This document shows positions 1 through 20,200 of a stretch of DNA of 64,000 nucleotides, one piece after another. Below the pieces are notes generated by a model. That model was not told where the DNA came from, did not search any database, and worked only from the letters and a program-made list of their open reading frames with translations. The stretch lies in the sequence record MK373786.1. One strand, given 5' to 3'. A program made the position numbers and the translations under genes. The stretch's first letter is position 1. Every line of letters begins with the position of its first letter. This stretch comes from Escherichia phage vB_EcoM_R5505.

Positions 1-849
<849 letters not shown>

Positions 850-868
<19 letters not shown>

Positions 869-1338
869 TCAGTGATAAAGTTATTTAAATTTTGAGTATA
901 TTTCTTTTCATCAAAAATCCTTTGTTGTCTGCGTAGCCGCCATGGCATTTCAATGAACGTGTACCATATCCCAGATAATATTGCTGCTGTAAAAATATTA
1001 ACAAGTATGGTTAAAAGAATCCAATCTCCTATTCTGTCCATTGGATTTTTTATAAAAAAGTAAAATACGAATGATGTCACAGGAAAACTAATAATGTACC
1101 ACAGAATCATAATTTTATCTGTGAACCAATCAGCATTTGTTAACTTAGCACGACCATTATGAATACACACGAATTTATCATCTGTTATAATAGATGGCTT
1201 AGCTGCTTGATATCCCATTCTAAACTCCCTAATCAACAAATTTTTCATATCTTCGGAACAACCATTCCAGTCAACTCTATTAACTGAAATGCCATCATCC
1301 CCATCATCTAAATCATACCAGCGAGTTTTTAAAATCAT
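850..1338 (-). CDS. e.2: small membrane protein, T4 e.2 position
   Basis: 162-aa ORF, ATG start, hydrophobic segments, C-terminal tail ...FITECRKLK; symbol assigned by synteny only. Confidence 0.65.
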
Positions 1339-1709
1339 TTAATTTTCCTACAATCATTCACGAATTCTTTCATTGATTCATTTTCAATATAAGACATGTA
1401 GTTATTATATTCTTTTAATTGTATTTTGTAATCCTTTTTTCTTTGCCAATTTATTTTAAAATTATCATAATGAAAATATAAAATGATACTAAAGAATGAA
1501 AATAATGAAATTGCTATAGTATAATGAAGTTCACTCCAAACTTCTATTATATCTACTATACCGCTGACGTTACTGCGGATGTTTAAAATAATACAGTCAA
1601 TCATTAATCCAATAAGACTACCAGCAAGAGCTGCAGCCAACGCCACAGCAAAAATTAAAAATGACTCAGAAAAAGAATATTTGACTTTATTTAGTTTTGG
1701 CTTTTGCAT
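1335..1709 (-). CDS. e.3: small membrane protein, T4 e.3 position
   Basis: 124-aa ORF overlapping e.2 by 4 nt; two hydrophobic helices; C-terminal tail ...FVNDCRKIK; synteny. Confidence 0.65.
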   Translation of the reverse strand: MQKPKLNKVKYSFSESFLIFAVALAAALAGSLIGLMIDCIILNIRSNVSGIVDIIEVWSELHYTIAISLFSFFSIILYFHYDNFKINWQRKKDYKIQLKEYNNYMSYIENESMKEFVNDCRKIK

Positions 1710-2083
1710 CGTGATTCCTTAACAAATTTCATAATTTCATTAAATTCATACATATTTAGTTTAAGCTGGTGTTCCTTTTTAATCTTTTTACACTGAGCTT
1801 TCCATTCACGTACACGTTTACGATAATGCCTTCCTTGATACCAATATCCTACCCAATTTACAGGTACCAATAAAAATGGAACTACTAATGGAAGAATTAA
1901 TACTAACAAAAATATTACGCCAGATTCAATATCAGTCATAAAGTCTATAACCATTCCAACAATCAATAGAATTACAAATGATATAGCTGTCACAGGACCT
2001 ATTAATACATCAGTAGGAATTAGCTGACGTTTTAGTTCATACTTCACAGGTTCACTTGGAAGGTATAGTGATGGCTTTGACAT
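1691..2083 (-). CDS. e.4: small membrane protein, T4 e.4 position
   Basis: ORF track start 2104 is a TTG; first ATG at 2083 (MSKPSLYL...); hydrophobic core; tail ...FVKESRCKSQN; synteny. Confidence 0.6.
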   Translation of the reverse strand: MSKPSLYLPSEPVKYELKRQLIPTDVLIGPVTAISFVILLIVGMVIDFMTDIESGVIFLLVLILPLVVPFLLVPVNWVGYWYQGRHYRKRVREWKAQCKKIKKEHQLKLNMYEFNEIMKFVKESRCKSQN

Positions 2084-2657
2084 ATTCTCTACATTCCTTA
2101 ACAAATTTTTCTAATAATAAATCGCTTTCAAAATTAGGATTTTCTACGAATTTATCAAAAAGATCATCAACAATAGTTAAGATATTCTTTTTACTAAGAA
2201 TACGTTTATTTTCATGCTTTGTTTCAGAATCAACTATAAGAGTAAAGAAATATTTCTTGCCCTGAAATTTTACAGTAGTATCAATATAGAATAAATTTGA
2301 CTTTTGTAAATTACGTTTAAACCATGCATCACTTAAACTATAAACACCAAGATAATCATAATCGTCGTTTAAATAACATACTGTCCATTCAGGAGAAATG
2401 AAATCAGTAAATTCAACATCAAAATCACATGTTAATGAATGAATTGATTCAATACTGTTAATAAGTATTCCAGGACGTATTAAAGACTTTTTACCTTTAT
2501 AAAATCCAGAAAGACTTTCATCAGTTTCATATGAAGAACCCCAATAATAATTACGTCCTTCTGCCATACGTTTAAGAGCATTTAATAATTGGTCTGGAAC
2601 ATCAACCTGTCTTTGGAACTCTTCAAACATTGAATTGAAATCACTTTGCATTTTCAT
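2052..2657 (-). CDS. e.5: hypothetical protein, T4 e.5 position
   Basis: 201-aa ORF, ATG start with SD (GGAGTAAGTAGGAATG on minus strand); C-terminus ...EKFVKECREYVK related to e.2-e.4 tails. Confidence 0.65.
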   Translation of the reverse strand: MKMQSDFNSMFEEFQRQVDVPDQLLNALKRMAEGRNYYWGSSYETDESLSGFYKGKKSLIRPGILINSIESIHSLTCDFDVEFTDFISPEWTVCYLNDDYDYLGVYSLSDAWFKRNLQKSNLFYIDTTVKFQGKKYFFTLIVDSETKHENKRILSKKNILTIVDDLFDKFVENPNFESDLLLEKFVKECREYVKAITIPSK

Positions 2658-2678
2658 TCCTACTTACTCCAAGTAATA

Positions 2679-2692
2679 GGGGCCGAAGCCCC
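2679..2692 (-). terminator. stem-loop GGGGCCGAAGCCCC between e.6 and e.5 (terminator or mRNA-stability hairpin)
   Basis: Perfect 5-bp GC stem with CGAA loop just downstream of e.6 stop; same hairpin recurs at 44387-44400. Confidence 0.4.
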
Positions 2693-2698
2693 TTATCA

Positions 2699-3292
2699 TT
2701 ATTTCAGAGAATTAATGTATTCCTGAACATCGGCAGAGGTAGTTTCAACCCCAGAAATATTACCATTAAAGGTTTCAACTCGAGCAAGAGTATCTTCAAT
2801 ATCAACCTTAGTCAGTGCTGCAATTTCAACTACATCATCGGCAGTACTAATTCCGAGGGCATTCGCGGCGCGAGTTTCACGGATATATTCCAATTTAACT
2901 GCAAGTTCTTGGCGAGCATCATCTAACTCAACTACTTTCTTGGCGATTTCAATTCGCATTTCAGCATAACCATCAGCTTTAGTAGTCAACTGCTCAGCTG
3001 TTCGACGATATAGTAAACCAAGTTTAGCATGCATTGTTACATCTTGACCTTCCGAAAGAAGCTTGCGAATTTCACGCTCTTTTGATTCGGCCTGCTTATT
3101 CTTTTCGACAATAAGTTCACGAATACGCTTTTCTTCATTAATAGATTTAACAGAAGCAGTTTTTAGATCTTTAATCTTATCAAGTAGTTTTGCTGCTGCA
3201 GCAGTATACTGTTCTTCAACAGATAGATTTTTAGCCATAGCAGAACCAAGTTTAGTGCGAATAAACTCAACAATTTTCTTCAGTGTGTTCAT
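2699..3292 (-). CDS. e.6: coiled-coil protein, T4 e.6 position
   Basis: 197-aa ORF, ATG start; charged, heptad-rich sequence predicting long coiled coil; no catalytic motif recognised. Confidence 0.65.
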
Positions 3293-3348
3293 AGTATTTC
3301 CTTAGGTTGGTATAATTAGATAATATCACGTTTTAATAGATTGTAAAC

Positions 3349-3684
3349 TTATTCTTCGTCTAGCTCGTCGATAAAGACGTTGATGGCCTCGATAACGGCA
3401 TCATTGATAGCTAATAAAATAAAATCATCGTCAGTACCTTTAGAAGATTCTAAAGCATTGATATATGCTTGGTTGGCGAGTTCCCAAGCCTTTTTAAAAT
3501 AAGGAGCTTCATCATCAGGACAAATATCCCGCACGCCTTCAAAGATACGTTTGGCATAATCTAACACCCATTGTACAGGCATGTTTTGAGAACGTTCGTT
3601 AAACTCTTTAAAGTCCTTAGATTCAAAAAGCTCTTCAGGATAATTATTTCTATTACAAAAAGCTTTACTAAAGTTACGTTTCAT
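3349..3684 (-). CDS. e.7: acidic hypothetical protein, T4 e.7 position
   Basis: 111-aa ORF, ATG start; synteny. Confidence 0.65.
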   Translation of the reverse strand: MKRNFSKAFCNRNNYPEELFESKDFKEFNERSQNMPVQWVLDYAKRIFEGVRDICPDDEAPYFKKAWELANQAYINALESSKGTDDDFILLAINDAVIEAINVFIDELDEE

Positions 3685-4210: not shown

Positions 4211-4238
4211 AAAAAGTCCCAACCTTTCGGTTGGGGCT
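4211..4238 (-). terminator. rho-independent terminator after the 157-aa gene
   Basis: Minus-strand hairpin GCCCCAACC-GAAA-GGTTGGGAC followed by UUUUU; sits just 3' of the stop at 4246. Confidence 0.6.
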
Positions 4239-4245
4239 AAGAATG

Positions 4246-4719
4246 TTATTTGATTTGTTTAGCAGACCAAATGCGGTCTTTAATAATTTTTTGGATGTCT
4301 TCAACATACTCAAGAGAGTGAGCATGTGGGTTATCTTTGAAACTATAAGCACGAGCTAACTTTTGACCTTCAGTTTTGATTACTAAAAGCTCTTTAAGGA
4401 TAGCTTCATATTTGGAGATAATTCCTTTAACAATATTTTTTTCTTGTGTAGCTTTAGGATCTGCTTTAGGAGCAGGTTTACCTGAAGCCTTTGCAAAAGC
4501 AGCGCCAGTAGCAACTAAACTTTTCCAGGCCATACTAACTGCATTCCCTGTAAATCCTTCGGCTTTCATATCACGAGCAAATTGGAATCGTGATTCATCG
4601 GAAGCATCTTTATAGGAATATTTACCCGCGGCAATGGCTGCTTTTGCGACAGCTTGAATTTCGGTGCTAGATGCTTCATTTAACACCGCTTCATTTAAAA
4701 ATTGAGCATATGATTTCAT
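4246..4719 (-). CDS. Ala/Lys-rich protein with internal-protein-like N-terminal capsid-targeting motif
   Basis: 157-aa ORF, ATG start; N-terminus MKSYAQFLNEAVLNEA resembles the T4 internal-protein targeting sequence MKTYQEFIAEA and carries two L-x-E sites (prohead protease motif). Confidence 0.7.
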   Translation of the reverse strand: MKSYAQFLNEAVLNEASSTEIQAVAKAAIAAGKYSYKDASDESRFQFARDMKAEGFTGNAVSMAWKSLVATGAAFAKASGKPAPKADPKATQEKNIVKGIISKYEAILKELLVIKTEGQKLARAYSFKDNPHAHSLEYVEDIQKIIKDRIWSAKQIK

Positions 4720-4765
4720 CTTATTTCCTGTTTTAATTCGTGGTTTTAATATACTTATTTATACC

Positions 4766-4792
4766 AAAAAGCCCCAACCTTTCGGTCGGGGC
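4766..4792 (-). terminator. rho-independent terminator at the 3' end of the tRNA/stable-RNA transcription unit
   Basis: Minus-strand hairpin GCCCCGACC-GAAA-GGTTGGGGC followed by UUUUU; near-identical to the terminator at 4211-4238. Confidence 0.6.
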
Positions 4793-4844
4793 TAAGCCTT
4801 GCGGCAACCTTGTCGGGGTTCCACCTGCTAAGGCAAGTGTTTGT

Positions 4845-5002
4845 ACGAAACGCCGGGATTCGAACCCGGTTATTAAGCAGTTGACGCTACTCAATATTTT
4901 TAAAAGGCCATATCTCGACCATATCCGAACGTTCCGTCAAAAACGCTACTCGGCTTACGGCAAAGATATTTCCTCGAATCGATAATTCGGTGCGCCGTTT
5001 CT
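4845..5002 (-). ncRNA. candidate small stable RNA with tRNA-like 3' module (possibly T4 species-RNA analogue)
   Basis: Minus strand has perfect T-arm CCGGG-TTCGAAT-CCCGG followed by 7-nt acceptor-like strand that pairs with GAAACG ~150 nt upstream; no ORF; several strong hairpins at 5004-5104. Confidence 0.3.
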
Positions 5003-5104
5003 GCTGTGATATAAGAGGGCATTAACAAAACATAAAGATTTATTAATGCCAGTCCTTAAACAGGGAACATCAGTCCGACGACTTACCGGTAGCGACCCGG
5101 TTTC

Positions 5105-5455
5105 TTAATATTCTTTTAAAGCATCAATTTGTTCACGGCGTAAACGCCATAAATCAATTGCTTCATAAGCAGATTCAGCATTTCGAATTAGCCGACATTT
5201 ATGTAAAGACTTATGATTTTGATATTGTGTAGATAACGGAATTTTATCTAAAAGGTCTTTACGTTCAAAATATTCGTAACCATCTAAACCAAATGAACGA
5301 TTTTTGAGAAATTGCCAATGACCATATTCGTTTTCGACATAAACATAATCTGCATGCTGATAAAGCAAATTAATTACACGTTCAGAAATAACAGTATCAT
5401 TATGATTAAAATAGAATGTTAAATCATGAACTACTAAATAAACATTACATTTCAT
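5105..5455 (-). CDS. hypothetical protein encoded between tRNA-Arg and the stable-RNA region
   Basis: 116-aa ORF, ATG start with SD (TGAGGAAAATG); no recognisable motif; not GIY-YIG or HNH. Confidence 0.6.
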   Translation of the reverse strand: MKCNVYLVVHDLTFYFNHNDTVISERVINLLYQHADYVYVENEYGHWQFLKNRSFGLDGYEYFERKDLLDKIPLSTQYQNHKSLHKCRLIRNAESAYEAIDLWRLRREQIDALKEY

Positions 5456-17268: not shown

Positions 17269-20200
17269 CAGTAAAAGCACCTTCAGTCACTAGTCTCAGA
17301 ATTTCCAAGTTATCCGCAAATCAGGTGCAAGTACGCTGGGATGACGTTGGTGCTAATTTCTACTATTTTGTAGAAATCGCTGAGACAAAAACAGACTCGG
17401 GGGAAAAACTCCCGAGTAATCAATATCGTTGGATTAATTTAGGATATACTGCAAATAACAGCTTCTTTTTTGATGATGCTGATCCATTAACAACATACAT
17501 TATTAGAGTAGCCACAGCTGCGCAAGATTTTGAGCAGTCTGATTGGATTTATACCGAAGAGTTTGAAACTTTTGCTACAAATGCTTATACATTTCAAAAC
17601 ATGATTGAAATGCAATTAGCCAATAAATTCATTCAGGAAAAATTTACTCTTAATAATTCTGATTATGTTAATTTTAATAATGACACTATAATGGCTGCAT
17701 TGATGAATGAATCGTTTCAATTCAGCCCATCATATGTTGATGTTTCATCAATAAGTAATTTTATTATTGGTGAAAATGAGTATCATGAAATACAAGGTTC
17801 TATTCAGCAAGTATGTAAGGATATTAACCGCGTTTATTTGATGGAATCAGAAGGGATTCTATATCTTTTTGAGCGTTATCAACCTATAGTTAAAGTATCT
17901 AATGATAAAGGACAAACCTGGAAAGCTGTGAAGCTCTTCAATGACCGTGTAGGATATCCTTTATCTAAGACAGTATATTACCAATCTGCGAACACAACAT
18001 ACGTTCTAGGATACGACAAGATTTTCTACGGCCGTAAATCAACTGATGTTAGATGGTCAGCTGATGATGTCAGATTTAGTTCGCAAGATATAACATTTGC
18101 TAAACTTGGTGACCAATTACATCTAGGATTTGATGTAGAAATTTTTGCCACTTACGCGACTTTACCAGCGAATGTATACCGCATTGCAGAAGCTATTACT
18201 TGTACAGATGATTACATTTACGTTGTTGCCAGAGACAAAGTTAGATACATAAAAACGAGTAATGCACCTATAGATTCTGATCCATTATCTCCAACATATT
18301 CGGAAAGACTTTTTGAACCCGATACAATGACTATAACTGGAAATCCTAAAGCAGTATGCTATAAAATGGATTCTATCGGTGATAAAGTTTTTGCGCTTAT
18401 TATTGGTGAAGTTGAAACATTAAATGCTAATCCTAGAACATCAAAAATAATTGATTCCGCTGATAAAGGAATATATGTTTTAAATCATGACGAAAAGACA
18501 TGGAAAAGAGTTTTCGGTAATACCGAAGAAGAAAGAAGACGTATTCAACCCGGATATGCGAATATGTCAACTGATGGTAAATTAGTTTCTCTGTCTTCGA
18601 GTAATTTTAAATTTTTAAGTGATAATGTTGTTAATGACCCTGAAACTGTGGTGAAATATCAGTTAATCGGTGCTGTTAAATATGAATTTCCTCGTGAATG
18701 GTTAACTGATAAGCATTATCATATGATGGCATTTATAGCGGATGAAACATCTGATTGGGAGACTTTTACTCCTCAACCAATGAAATACTACGCAGAACCA
18801 TTCTTTAACTGGTCTAAAAAATCTAACACACGCTGTTGGATAAACAACTCTGATAGAGCTGTAGTAGTAGTTTATGCTGATTTAAAATACACTAAAGTTA
18901 TAGAAAATATTCCGGAAACATCACCAGATAGATTAGTTCATGAATACTGGGATGATGGTGATTGCACTATAGTAATGCCAAATGTCAAATTCACTGGATT
19001 TAAAAAATACGCATCAGGAATGCTTTTCTACAAAGCCTCCGGTGAAATAATTTCTTACTATGATTTTAACTATCGTGTGAGAGATACAGTAGAAATTATT
19101 TGGAAGCCAACTGAAGTATTTTTAAAAGCATTTTTACAAAACCAAGAGCATGAGACTCCTTGGTCACCAGAAGAAGAGCGTGGATTAGCTGACCCTGATT
19201 TAAGACCATTAATTGGCACAATGATGCCTGATTCTTATTTGTTACAGGATTCGAATTTTGAAGCATTTTGCGAAGCATATATTCAATATCTTTCTGATGG
19301 ATATGGAACTCAGTATAACAATTTACGAAATTTAATTCGTAACCAATATCCACGAGAAGAGCATGCATGGGAATATTTGTGGTCAGAGATATATAAAAGA
19401 AACATTTATTTAAATGCTGACAAACGCGATGCTGTTGCGAGATTCTTTGAATCACGTAGCTATGATTTTTATTCTACTAAAGGAATTGAAGCATCATACA
19501 AGTTTCTTTTTAAAGTTCTTTATAATGAAGAAGTTGAAATTGAAATTGAATCTGGGGCTGGTACTGAATATGACATAATCGTTCAATCTGATTCTTTGAC
19601 TGAAGATTTAGTAGGACAAACGATTTATACGGCAACAGGAAGATGTAATGTTACTTATATAGAAAGAAGCTATTCTAATGGTAAATTGCAATGGACAGTA
19701 ACTATTCATAATCTTTTGGGAAGATTAATTGCTGGTCAAGAAGTTAAAGCAGAAAGACTCCCTAGTTTTGAAGGCGAAATTATTCGTGGGGTTAAAGGAA
19801 AGGATTTGCTTCAAAATAATATAGACTATATTAATAGAAGTAGATCATACTATGTAATGAAAATTAAATCCAATTTACCTTCTTCCCGCTGGAAATCTGA
19901 TGTTATTCGTTTTGTTCATCCAGTAGGATTTGGATTTATAGCAATTACACTTTTAACAATGTTTATTAATGTTGGTTTAACTCTTAAACATACAGAGACT
20001 ATAATTAATAAATACAAAAACTATAAATGGGATTCTGGATTGCCTACTGAATATGCTGATAGAGTAGCTAAATTAACTCCAGCTGGTGAAATTGAGCATG
20101 ATTCAGTAACAGGCGAAGCAATTTATGAGCCTGGCCCAATGGCTGGTGTAGAATATCCTCTTCCTGATGACTATAATGCTGAAAATAATAATTCAATATT

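Follow-up and report, generated by a model that had tools for sequence, protein, structure and literature searches.

The four consecutive genes e.2, e.3, e.4 and e.5 of this phage encode proteins with related tails, and the DNA of each tail has a dual use, as it both encodes the protein motif and contains the Shine-Dalgarno sequence for the cistron that follows, inside a translationally coupled block. The body of e.5 is unrelated to the other three, which are membrane proteins, and the tail is the only part that it has in common with them. This array was examined in a window of 64,000 nucleotides, that is, the whole stretch of DNA analysed here, which belongs to a Tequatrovirus and whose identity is 100% with Citrobacter phage PhiZZ23 and around 92% with T4.

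The four open reading frames and the tails quoted for them in the original prediction were recovered, all of them on the minus strand (Table 1). The C-terminal ends are ...EFVNDCRKIK in e.3, ...KFVKESRCKSQN in e.4 and ...EKFVKECREYVKAITIPSK in e.5. All four proteins gave full-length PHROG matches, with E values from 6e-79 to 2e-108, and relatives of the array proteins carry the precomputed Pfam labels PF26896, PF26873 and PF26876. A search of NCBIfam and of a local copy of Pfam, which did not hold these three entries, returned nothing significant for the array proteins, and we found no mention of these Pfam and PHROG accessions in the literature.

Table 1. Position of the array genes, their features and the neighbouring elements in the window
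Feature	Position	Strand	Description	Basis
nudE (e.1)	413..853	-	follows the e.2 tail and is coupled to it; start ATG at 851-853, backed by a Shine-Dalgarno sequence, shares bases with the stop codon of e.2	NUDIX match
e.2 CDS	850..1338	-	162 aa; soluble N-terminal domain of ~75 aa, two-TM hairpin, cytoplasmic tail	PHROG 2203, E=6e-79; hydropathy
e.2 tail motif F-I-T-E-C-R	862..879	-	TTT ATC ACT GAA TGC AGG; AGGAAA is the nudE Shine-Dalgarno
e.2 TM hairpin	952..1113	-	~aa 76-96 and 103-129	Kyte-Doolittle, 19-residue windows >=1.6
e.3 CDS	1335..1709	-	124 aa; two-TM hairpin, TM2 extended by a long cytoplasmic helix that reaches the tail	PHROG 2330; AlphaFold2
e.3 tail motif F-V-N-D-C-R	1347..1364	-	TTC GTG AAT GAT TGT AGG; AGGAAA is the e.2 Shine-Dalgarno
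e.3 TM hairpin, acidic loop	1473..1667	-	~aa 15-46 and 61-79	hydropathy, AlphaFold2
e.4 CDS	1691..2083	-	130 aa, ATG start MSKPSL; two-TM hairpin, strongly basic cytoplasmic helix	PHROG 2604; hydropathy
e.4 variant tail F-V-K-E-S-R-C	1706..1726	-	AAGGAA is the e.3 Shine-Dalgarno; e.3 ATG (1707-1709) lies within the R-C codons (cgATGc)
e.4 TM hairpin	1844..2011	-	~aa 25-46 and 54-80	hydropathy
e.5 CDS	2052..2657	-	201 aa; soluble alpha/beta, no TM segment; motif on C-terminal helix aa 180-195	PHROG 2607; AlphaFold2; hydropathy
e.5 tail motif F-V-K-E-C-R	2088..2105	-	TTT GTT AAG GAA TGT AGA; 4 nt short of the e.4 ATG (2081-2083)
GC-rich hairpin with UUCG loop, between e.6 and e.5	2676..2696	-	bounds the tightly coupled block (e.5, e.4, e.3, e.2, nudE) on its upstream side

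Regarding the bodies of the proteins, the original prediction had seen in the four genes a paralogous array created by tandem duplication. This stands for e.2, e.3 and e.4, which share a two-TM architecture and are linked by full-length Smith-Waterman comparisons (z of 4.9 for e.2-e.3 and 5.3 for e.3-e.4) and by hhalign of the family profiles (e.3-e.4, P=8e-5 over 117 columns). A fifth carrier of the tail in the RB69 lineage, the membrane protein RB69 ORF133c of 101 aa, matches all three: e.2 with P=4e-6 (61 columns), e.3 with P=5e-5 and e.4 with P=3e-4. The direct hhalign comparison of e.2 and e.4 gave no significant match, and this pair is joined only via the other members. Furthermore, e.3 and e.4 have an MxKPxL N-terminus in common. 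Judged by these sequence comparisons, e.2, e.3, e.4 and ORF133c are true paralogues. The claim of tandem duplication does not extend to e.5 as a whole: its full-length Smith-Waterman comparisons with e.2, e.3 and e.4 were not significant, its hydropathy profile contained no hydrophobic segment, its AlphaFold2 model is an alpha/beta fold of moderate confidence (pLDDT 63), and hhalign against the family covered just 9-12 tail columns, with P from 4e-4 to 8e-3.

The hydropathy results agree with the earlier division into three membrane proteins and one soluble protein. In e.2, e.3 and e.4 two hydrophobic segments with positive flanks enclose a short neutral or acidic loop, which by hydropathy and charge corresponds to an N-in/C-in topology, and the AlphaFold2 model of e.3 is a hairpin of two helices (H15-46 and H54-123). 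The cytoplasmic location that had been given to the tail is thus backed by both the positive-inside rule and the model. As for the K/Y-rich stretch said to precede each tail, e.2, e.3 and e.4 have it, as the positive-inside region that follows TM2, and it is missing directly before the tail of e.5, where the sequence is acidic (DDLFDKFVENPNFESDLLLE).

The likeness of the tails had been predicted from reading the translations, and it exceeds chance for most pairs. The last 25 residues were set against 244 further tails of actual proteins from the same proteome (488 control tails). The scores of e.2-e.3 (42) and e.2-e.5 (32) were attained by none of the 488 control tails, that of e.4-e.5 (29) by one, and those of e.3-e.5 (31) and e.3-e.4 (28) by two each, the last one also by 52 of 1000 shuffles; the e.2-e.4 comparison over these 25 residues was not significant. 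When the tail of e.5 was ranked against 248 proteome tails, its top three matches were exactly e.2, e.3 and e.4. Furthermore, an HMM trained on the tails of e.2, e.3 and ORF133c, with e.5 left out, found e.5 as its top non-training match (E=0.0076; the next was 0.4), and did not detect e.4. As a degenerate DNA pattern, F-[IV]-x-[ED]-C-R matched three times in the window against 0.09 expected, a count attained by 0 of 100 shuffles of the window. In the six-frame translations of the 64 kb the three strict copies are each located at a 3' gene end, in e.2, e.3 and e.5 respectively, and the strict peptide motif occurred outside these genes neither in the six-frame window nor in T4 at 1-75 kb and 124-169 kb. 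On the motif counts, the control-tail scores and the tail HMM, a chance origin was rejected. The divergent member is e.4, which fails the strict motif with S at the Cys position (I in RB69-like phages).

The motif appears to be kept by selection on the protein. Among the RB69-like orthologues, which are 27-53% identical overall, those of e.2, e.3 and e.5 still have F, C and R, although the codons for them changed synonymously; the same residues are retained in the Mosigvirus orthologues of these three and in ORF133c despite 27-46% overall identity. In the Mosigvirus e.4 (53% identical) the variant F-V-K-E-[S/I]-R-C persists, with no Cys at the motif position. The motif core is nearly invariant across around 130 natural protein clusters. 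The x position of the motif is freely variable (N, S, I, K, T, M). Among e.3 orthologues the motif region as a whole is not much better conserved than the rest (3/9 identical vs 36% elsewhere), its substitutions being conservative.

Every motif lies 0-11 nt 5' of the next ATG and includes AAGGAA, AGGAAA or GAGGA; AAGGAA or AGGAAA is found 5-11 nt upstream of each downstream ATG. The genes themselves are joined by ATGA stop/start overlaps at e.3/e.2 and e.2/nudE, by 19 nt at e.4/e.3 and by 32 nt, the last 10 codons of e.5, at e.5/e.4. For nudE, a longer start is also annotated, as in T2; it is the ATG at 866-868 of the window, which arises within the E and C codons of the e.2 motif (GAATGC). 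This Shine-Dalgarno overlap, the fifth member in the RB69 lineage and the junctions as points of recombination and deletion are absent from the original prediction.

The similarity might be a mere by-product of coupling: each tail covers the ribosome-binding site of the gene that follows, and alike Shine-Dalgarno sequences and spacers would give alike residues in a peptide that is itself functionless. Moreover, the motif position in e.5 and in e.4 follows the downstream start codon and not the C-terminus of the protein itself, and the start codon of e.3 dictates the Cys of e.4, with which it overlaps. We nevertheless regard this explanation as improbable. F, I/V and C are never within the Shine-Dalgarno sequence, which is made from differing codons (K-E, C-R-K or R-G), and yet F, C and R persist: R is retained as AGG, AGA or CGA, and F (TTT/TTC) and C (TGT/TGC, both among e.3 orthologues) change only synonymously. 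In addition, 244 other T4 protein tails, many of them likewise coupled downstream, are unlike these, and the junction RNAs are unstructured. The Shine-Dalgarno constraint as sole cause was rejected as largely refuted by the codon evidence; an RNA structural element was rejected too, as all four junction RNAs folded no better than their shuffles (z from +0.25 to +1.2). A comparable standing has the idea of concerted evolution, that is, junctions homogenised by gene conversion or recombination, with the e.5 tail acquired passively and the motif as historical baggage, to which we give little credence. In its favour, T2 and the UFV05 lineage both demonstrate that the junctions recombine. T2 lost e.2 through a tail-tail crossover: its e.3|nudE junction is e.3-like as far as GAT and thereafter matches the e.2 tail and nudE junction. 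The UFV05 lineage has an in-frame e.4::e.2 chimera joined at the common TCCTGTGACA in TM1. Concerted evolution is also favoured by a 16-nt tract, AAATTTGTTAAGGAAT, identical in e.4 and e.5 of the window, and by P0137, an e.4 variant whose internal deletion removed both TM segments and kept the tail, and which thereby shows how a soluble body with the tail could arise. Conversion would not predict, however, that the paralogous tails differ synonymously and that the corresponding pairs resemble each other less in Mosigvirus, nor does it fit with an amino-acid core that lasted in both genera while the proteins diverged to 27-53% identity. The few tail DNAs compared across genera already look grouped by orthologue rather than by genome.

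The array varies among phages. The e.2 gene is intact in the window, split by frameshifts in reference T4 and absent from T2, and in the UFV phages one chimera is the only array member left. Array members are readily lost, and therefore no single member is individually required. In T4 all four genes have early RNA and their proteins were detected, e.4 and e.5 early, e.2 at the middle stage and e.3 late (PMC9697503 supplement). Knock-downs of e.2-e.6 had no fitness effect, and the same source agrees with the earlier statement that the e.2-e.8 cluster has no assigned function (PMC11879866 supplement). The array genes are dispensable in the laboratory.

As far as database searches can tell, the family is confined to T-even phages, in two closely related genera. 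A profile search of 5.8 billion proteins gave 130 clusters, all T-even-like as far as they were named or inspected, and an exhaustive HMMER search of 1.84 billion representatives gave 13 matches, all of them of the e.2/e.3/e.4/ORF133c type or fragments. For e.5 we found 14 clusters, and its tblastn matches were confined to Tequatrovirus and Mosigvirus, bar one partial match at E=0.7. A search with the tail profile only, against the same 5.8 billion proteins, recovered only fragments of the same families, but had low power with just 21 candidates collected, and a related-locus search with e.3 alone returned 4 loci only.

The interaction or targeting module of the original prediction is a plausible idea. 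We tentatively suggest that the tail may well be a common cytoplasmic docking or oligomerisation helix, selected at the protein level, in an early, accessory and non-essential complex. The three or four membrane paralogues are small inner-membrane proteins with N-in/C-in hairpins and, in the e.3 model, TM2 leads into a cytoplasmic helix of around 45 residues, whose tip presents hydrophobic-x-x-F-[I/V]-x-[E/D]-C-R. The hydrophobic residue, F, I/V and C lie on one face of the helix, and the soluble e.5, encoded immediately upstream, ends in the same helix. We infer that this helix is a protein-protein docking surface and that e.5 associates with the membrane proteins by way of it; e.5 and the hairpins would thereby be held together, or all of them be led to a single common partner. 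The complex would be assembled early in infection as an accessory, non-essential one, and the repeated junctions supply short homology tracts by which array members are deleted or fused. Several observations go against docking: e.4 adjoins e.5 and yet lacks the motif-position Cys and is missed by the tail HMM, the motif region of e.3 is not much better conserved than its remainder, the e.5 model has only moderate confidence, and members are readily lost, with the e.2-e.6 knock-downs being neutral.

Some chance, although a rather low one, goes to the tail being a recognition signal for one external host or phage factor, such as a target enzyme, a protease, an adaptor or a factor for membrane insertion or localisation, with e.5 and the membrane proteins as independent clients. 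The same motif on two unrelated protein bodies, its position at or near the C-terminus, exposed on the tip of a long helix, and the loss of single members while others stay are all in line with this. However, no other body carried the motif in the searched parts of T4 or among the mere 21 candidates of the tail-profile search, and e.5 continues for 11 residues beyond the motif, which is hence no strict C-terminal tag. Still somewhat less likely is a heteromeric assembly helix that anchors e.5 at the inner membrane by pairing with the helices of e.2, e.3 and e.4, with the invariant Cys in the helix-helix core, possibly bridged by metal or disulfide, as part of a T-even-specific early accessory complex. 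If this assembly were true, the complex would have an accessory role, e.g. in superinfection exclusion or against host defence, and recombination at the dual-use junctions (docking helix and ribosome-binding site) would adjust how many membrane subunits it has and of which type. The membrane proteins resemble class II holins in their pair of TM segments, their N-in/C-in topology and their charged cytoplasmic C-terminus, and they are encoded upstream of nudE and the lysozyme gene e. They might accordingly be holin-, antiholin- or pinholin-like lysis-timing factors with the tail as a regulatory cytoplasmic domain, but this is highly improbable: the RNA is early in T4, as are the e.4 and e.5 proteins (PMC9697503 supplement), which is unsuitable for a holin, the knock-downs had no fitness effect (PMC11879866 supplement), and Pfam, PHROGs and NCBIfam gave no holin family match. 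Furthermore, T4 already has holin T.

Around half of the T4 genes are still without a function. Four expressed early T4 proteins, and a fifth one in RB69, can now be treated as one unit with a defined motif and three invariant residues, and the array thus replaces four unrelated "hypothetical proteins" with something concrete and cheaply testable. The array also illustrates clearly how a gene junction can be dual-coding, for a protein motif and a ribosome-binding site, and the same junction is a recombination point through which the copy number of the membrane paralogues varies from 1 to 4 among natural T-even phages. We expect a modest impact, because the genes are laboratory-dispensable and the family seems limited to two closely related genera.

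The individual gene families were already in databases. PHROGs 2203, 2330, 2604 and 2607 and the Pfam labels describe separate families of unknown function, in which the tail and the link among e.2, e.3, e.4 and ORF133c are absent; the sole cross-family PHROG link is that from e.3 to phrog_2604 (E=0.006). Imm, Sp, Ac and rI are small early T4 inner-membrane proteins with accessory roles. The array proteins are like them in being small, encoded on the same strand as early-gene blocks, laboratory-dispensable and located in variable regions. However, Imm, Sp, Ac and rI lack the tail in the searched T4 ORFs, have no tail HMM score and do not form a tandem array with a motif-sharing soluble partner. 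The likeness to class II holins and pinholins also includes the closeness to an endolysin gene, and the differences are expression that is early and not late, longer cytoplasmic helices and the lack of a family match. Finally, T4-type genomes undergo modular shuffling of PeSL cassettes (promoter-early stem-loop; PMC2839356, PMC4122927). Neither a stem-loop nor a promoter-like site was found at the array junctions, that is, neither part of the early promoter and stem-loop that define a PeSL. As with PeSLs, short repeats lie at gene boundaries in hyperplastic regions where genes are gained, lost or swapped, the loss of e.2 in T2 being an example; nevertheless, the repeat is here coding sequence plus ribosome-binding site, whereas a PeSL is a promoter-terminator element.

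In the window, 850-2657 matches Citrobacter phage PhiZZ23 at 100% identity and T4 at about 92%. At least 80% of this stretch is contained in 440 phage records, most of which are named as phages of Escherichia, Shigella, Yersinia or Salmonella. The order on the - strand is e.6, a UUCG hairpin that borders the coupled block on its upstream side, e.5, e.4, e.3, e.2 and nudE. From e.5 through nudE the successive overlaps are 32 nt, 19 nt, ATGA and ATGA; each gene overlaps the next one and therefore the block is a translationally coupled unit. The annotated start of nudE (151 aa) is an out-of-frame ATG that arises where the e.2 tail motif encodes E-C (GAATGC), and a start supported by a Shine-Dalgarno sequence, the one used in the T2 annotation, overlaps the e.2 stop codon. 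Elsewhere in the window, two terminator-like hairpins sharing the CCGAAAGG loop context flank an ORF for which the T4 annotation shows no obvious counterpart in the interval from e.8 to the small RNAs.

Coordinates of features in the window and in the compared phage loci
Feature	Coordinates	Strand	Remark
e.5	2052-2657	-	
e.4	1691-2083	-	
e.3	1335-1709	-	
e.2	850-1338	-	162 aa, intact in window
GC-rich hairpin, UUCG loop (GGGGC-UUCG-GCCCC)	2676-2696		between e.6 and e.5; scored terminator-like
nudE, annotated start	866-868		ATG
nudE, Shine-Dalgarno-supported start	851-853		5 codons downstream of the annotated one
Terminator-like hairpins	4218-4235; 4770-4793		
157-aa ORF	4246-4719		
ORF139c/137c/136c, Mosigvirus phage 55 (L001)	4357-5151		
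ORF139c/137c/136c, L006	6284-7078		
Locus without e.2, T2 (L002)	3285-3405		
e.4::e.2 chimera, phage vB_EcoM-UFV05 (L011)	1501-1821		
e.2 pseudogene, T4 NC_000866 (L004)	18440-18965		equivalent to window 850-1338

The original prediction described e.2-e.5 as a tandem paralogous array with a common C-terminal tail. The four tails appear in the translations exactly as quoted there, and their likeness is far above chance by shuffles, by a null of real tails and by a tail HMM, except for e.3-e.4, which is marginal, and e.2-e.4, which is not significant, both under the real-tail null. The DNA pattern of the motif F-[IV]-x-[ED]-C-R had 3 matches in 64 kb against 0.09 expected, a count reached in 0 of 100 shuffles, and all 3 are in frame and on one strand, each at the 3' end of one gene (e.2, e.3 or e.5); six-frame translation of the window and of two T4 regions, 1-75 kb and 124-169 kb, showed the motif nowhere else. 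The real-tail null consisted of 244 C-terminal tails of the same proteome, so that composition is controlled for, as is the frequent placing of a Shine-Dalgarno sequence within the ORF that precedes a gene. Against it the scores of e.2-e.3, e.2-e.5, e.3-e.5 and e.4-e.5 were extreme (matched by 0-2 of 488 controls). Furthermore, when the HMM was trained only on e.2, e.3 and ORF133c, a fifth carrier from RB69 (101 aa, two TM segments), the first non-training match was e.5 (E=0.0076, the next being 0.4). The same HMM did not detect e.4, and therefore e.4, which ends in FVKESRC, is a divergent carrier. The overlapping e.3 start (cgATGc) fixes the Cys codon of e.4, and the RB69-like e.4 has I where the other carriers have C.

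The orthologues in the Mosigvirus phages 55 and JS09 share only 27-53% overall identity. The RB69-like e.5 tail reads ...EQFIMECREYVKA..., and the C-termini are ...EFVKEIRCKSLNS in e.4, ...ENFIKECRK in e.3, ...ERFITECRNLR in e.2 and ...ENFIKECRGK in ORF133c. In these phages unrelated inserted genes separate the carriers, so the motif is independent of any particular downstream gene. Among about 130 natural protein clusters the core is almost invariant and the flanks are variable. F is encoded by TTT or TTC, C by TGT or TGC (both found even among e.3 orthologues) and R by AGG, AGA or CGA, while x may be N, S, I, K, T or M. Because F, C and R are kept under varied codons and x is free, purifying selection appears to act on the motif peptide, not on the nucleotide sequence. 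Directly after the Mosigvirus e.3 tail there are three consecutive small soluble ORFs, RB69 ORF139c, 137c and 136c, which share a C-terminal motif of their own, GWV[SA]SSxxC-stop. They would make up a second tandem family of this hyperplastic region whose members have a Cys-containing tail in common.

The tail likeness might instead be a pure by-product of ribosome-binding sites. The next start codon lies 0-11 nt past each motif, which contains the Shine-Dalgarno sequence of the downstream gene: AAGGAA (K-E codons) in e.5, e.4 and Mosigvirus e.3, AGGAAA (R-K codons) in e.2 and e.3, and GAGGA (R-G codons) in ORF133c. In e.5 and e.4 the motif position even follows the downstream start, not the protein's own end. 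This overlap accounts for some of the K, E and R residues, but it leaves F, I/V, C and the retention of R under three codons unexplained, and we consider the by-product explanation less likely than a docking or oligomerisation helix. An RNA element at the junctions was ruled out because the RNAs there show no structure (z +0.25 to +1.2), as is expected of initiation regions.

Regarding paralogy, the predicted array stands for the membrane proteins and fails for e.5. The relatedness of e.2, e.3, e.4 and ORF133c reaches beyond the tail: Smith-Waterman z was 4.9 for e.2-e.3 and 5.3 for e.3-e.4, e.3 matches the e.4 PHROG (E=0.006), and profile-profile comparison gave P=8e-5 over 117 columns for e.3-e.4 and, against ORF133c, P=4e-6 (e.2), 5e-5 (e.3) and 3e-4 (e.4). 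On the contrary, e.5 has a different body, with no TM segment by hydropathy, and aligns with the membrane paralogues over only 9-12 tail columns; its moderately confident model (pLDDT 63, pTM 0.65) is alpha/beta with the motif in helix 180-195. It shares the module, and its body has no common ancestry with theirs. The tail of e.5 may have come from an e.2-like ancestor that lost its TM hairpin, an internal deletion of just the kind seen in the e.4 variant P0137, or from recombination at a junction.

Each of e.2, e.3 and e.4 has two positively flanked hydrophobic segments and a short loop that is neutral or acidic, a hydropathy and charge pattern that indicates an N-in/C-in topology and agrees with the cytoplasmic tail proposed originally. 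The AlphaFold2 model of e.3 is a hairpin in which TM2 continues into the tail as a single helix, residues 54-123, whose cytoplasmic part has a pLDDT of about 85. By eye, the cytoplasmic helices of e.3 and e.4 carry hydrophobic residues roughly every third or fourth position, which suggests an amphipathic or coiled-coil-like seam including the hydrophobic residue, F, I/V and C of the motif.

The family is narrow in distribution. A profile search of 5.8 billion proteins gave 130 clusters, HMMER run exhaustively against 1.84 billion representatives gave 13 matches, and e.5 gave 14 clusters; tblastn matches of e.3 and e.5 were only in Tequatrovirus and Mosigvirus, apart from one partial match (E=0.7). 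The tail was not found on other protein bodies in a low-power search that gathered only 21 candidates, Pfam and NCBIfam had no match for e.2-e.5, and the e.5 fold search returned nothing specific. Some NCBI records call e.3 homologues 'sulfurtransferase' and one 'DNA primase'; unsupported by Pfam or NCBIfam, these names look like annotation artefacts. Published T4 data show early RNA and a detected protein for each of the four genes, the proteins being early for e.4 and e.5, middle for e.2 and late for e.3 (PMC9697503); they are listed with function and essentiality unknown, and CRISPRi-ART guides against them are labelled 'Not Fit' (PMC11879866).

The array also varies in copy number. T2-type phages (T2 and locus L010) precisely lack e.2: at the T2 e.3|nudE junction the sequence is e.3-like through ...GTGAGTGAT and thereafter like the sequence that joins the e.2 tail to nudE (TGCAGGAAATTAAAATGAAAACAC), giving the hybrid tail EFVSDCRKLK, which points to a crossover inside the C-R-K motif codons. 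Five UFV isolates have a single in-frame chimera of 106 aa, in which e.4 residues 1-32 pass into the C-terminal part of e.2 at a 10-nt TCCTGTGACA common to both in TM1; e.3 is deleted. In reference T4, e.2 is a pseudogene with two frameshifts in the TM region, annotated as a 102-aa N-terminal ORF, and its tail is left in a separate unannotated frame. Several e.3 from phages or metagenomes (P0047, P0050, P0079, P0089, P0120) are only 76-97 aa long because the A-run following ...NWQRKK is frameshifted, which removes the tail; such truncations may be genuine variants or else sequencing errors in a homopolymer. The membrane paralogues therefore number from one to four in nature, and e.5 accompanies them in every locus examined.

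The best-supported reading is that of lineage-specific early inner-membrane hairpin proteins and one soluble protein with a common, selected, cytoplasmic amphipathic helix. The most likely role of this helix, by inference, is that of a docking or oligomerisation surface, by which the carriers would bind each other and recruit e.5 to the membrane, or would all bind one common partner. Compared with this reading, we regard as less likely a tail serving as a common external recognition signal, a holin-like role, and concerted evolution of the tails without function.

The tail finding is real and tidy, and it offers for five orphan proteins a hypothesis that can be tested. The type of system is not new: the array is an uncharacterised example of a familiar one, the tandem accessory paralogues of a T-even hyperplastic region. 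The copy-number variation has an outcome like that of PeSL-mediated shuffling (PMC2839356, PMC4122927), from which it differs in that the repeat in the e.2-e.5 array is coding.
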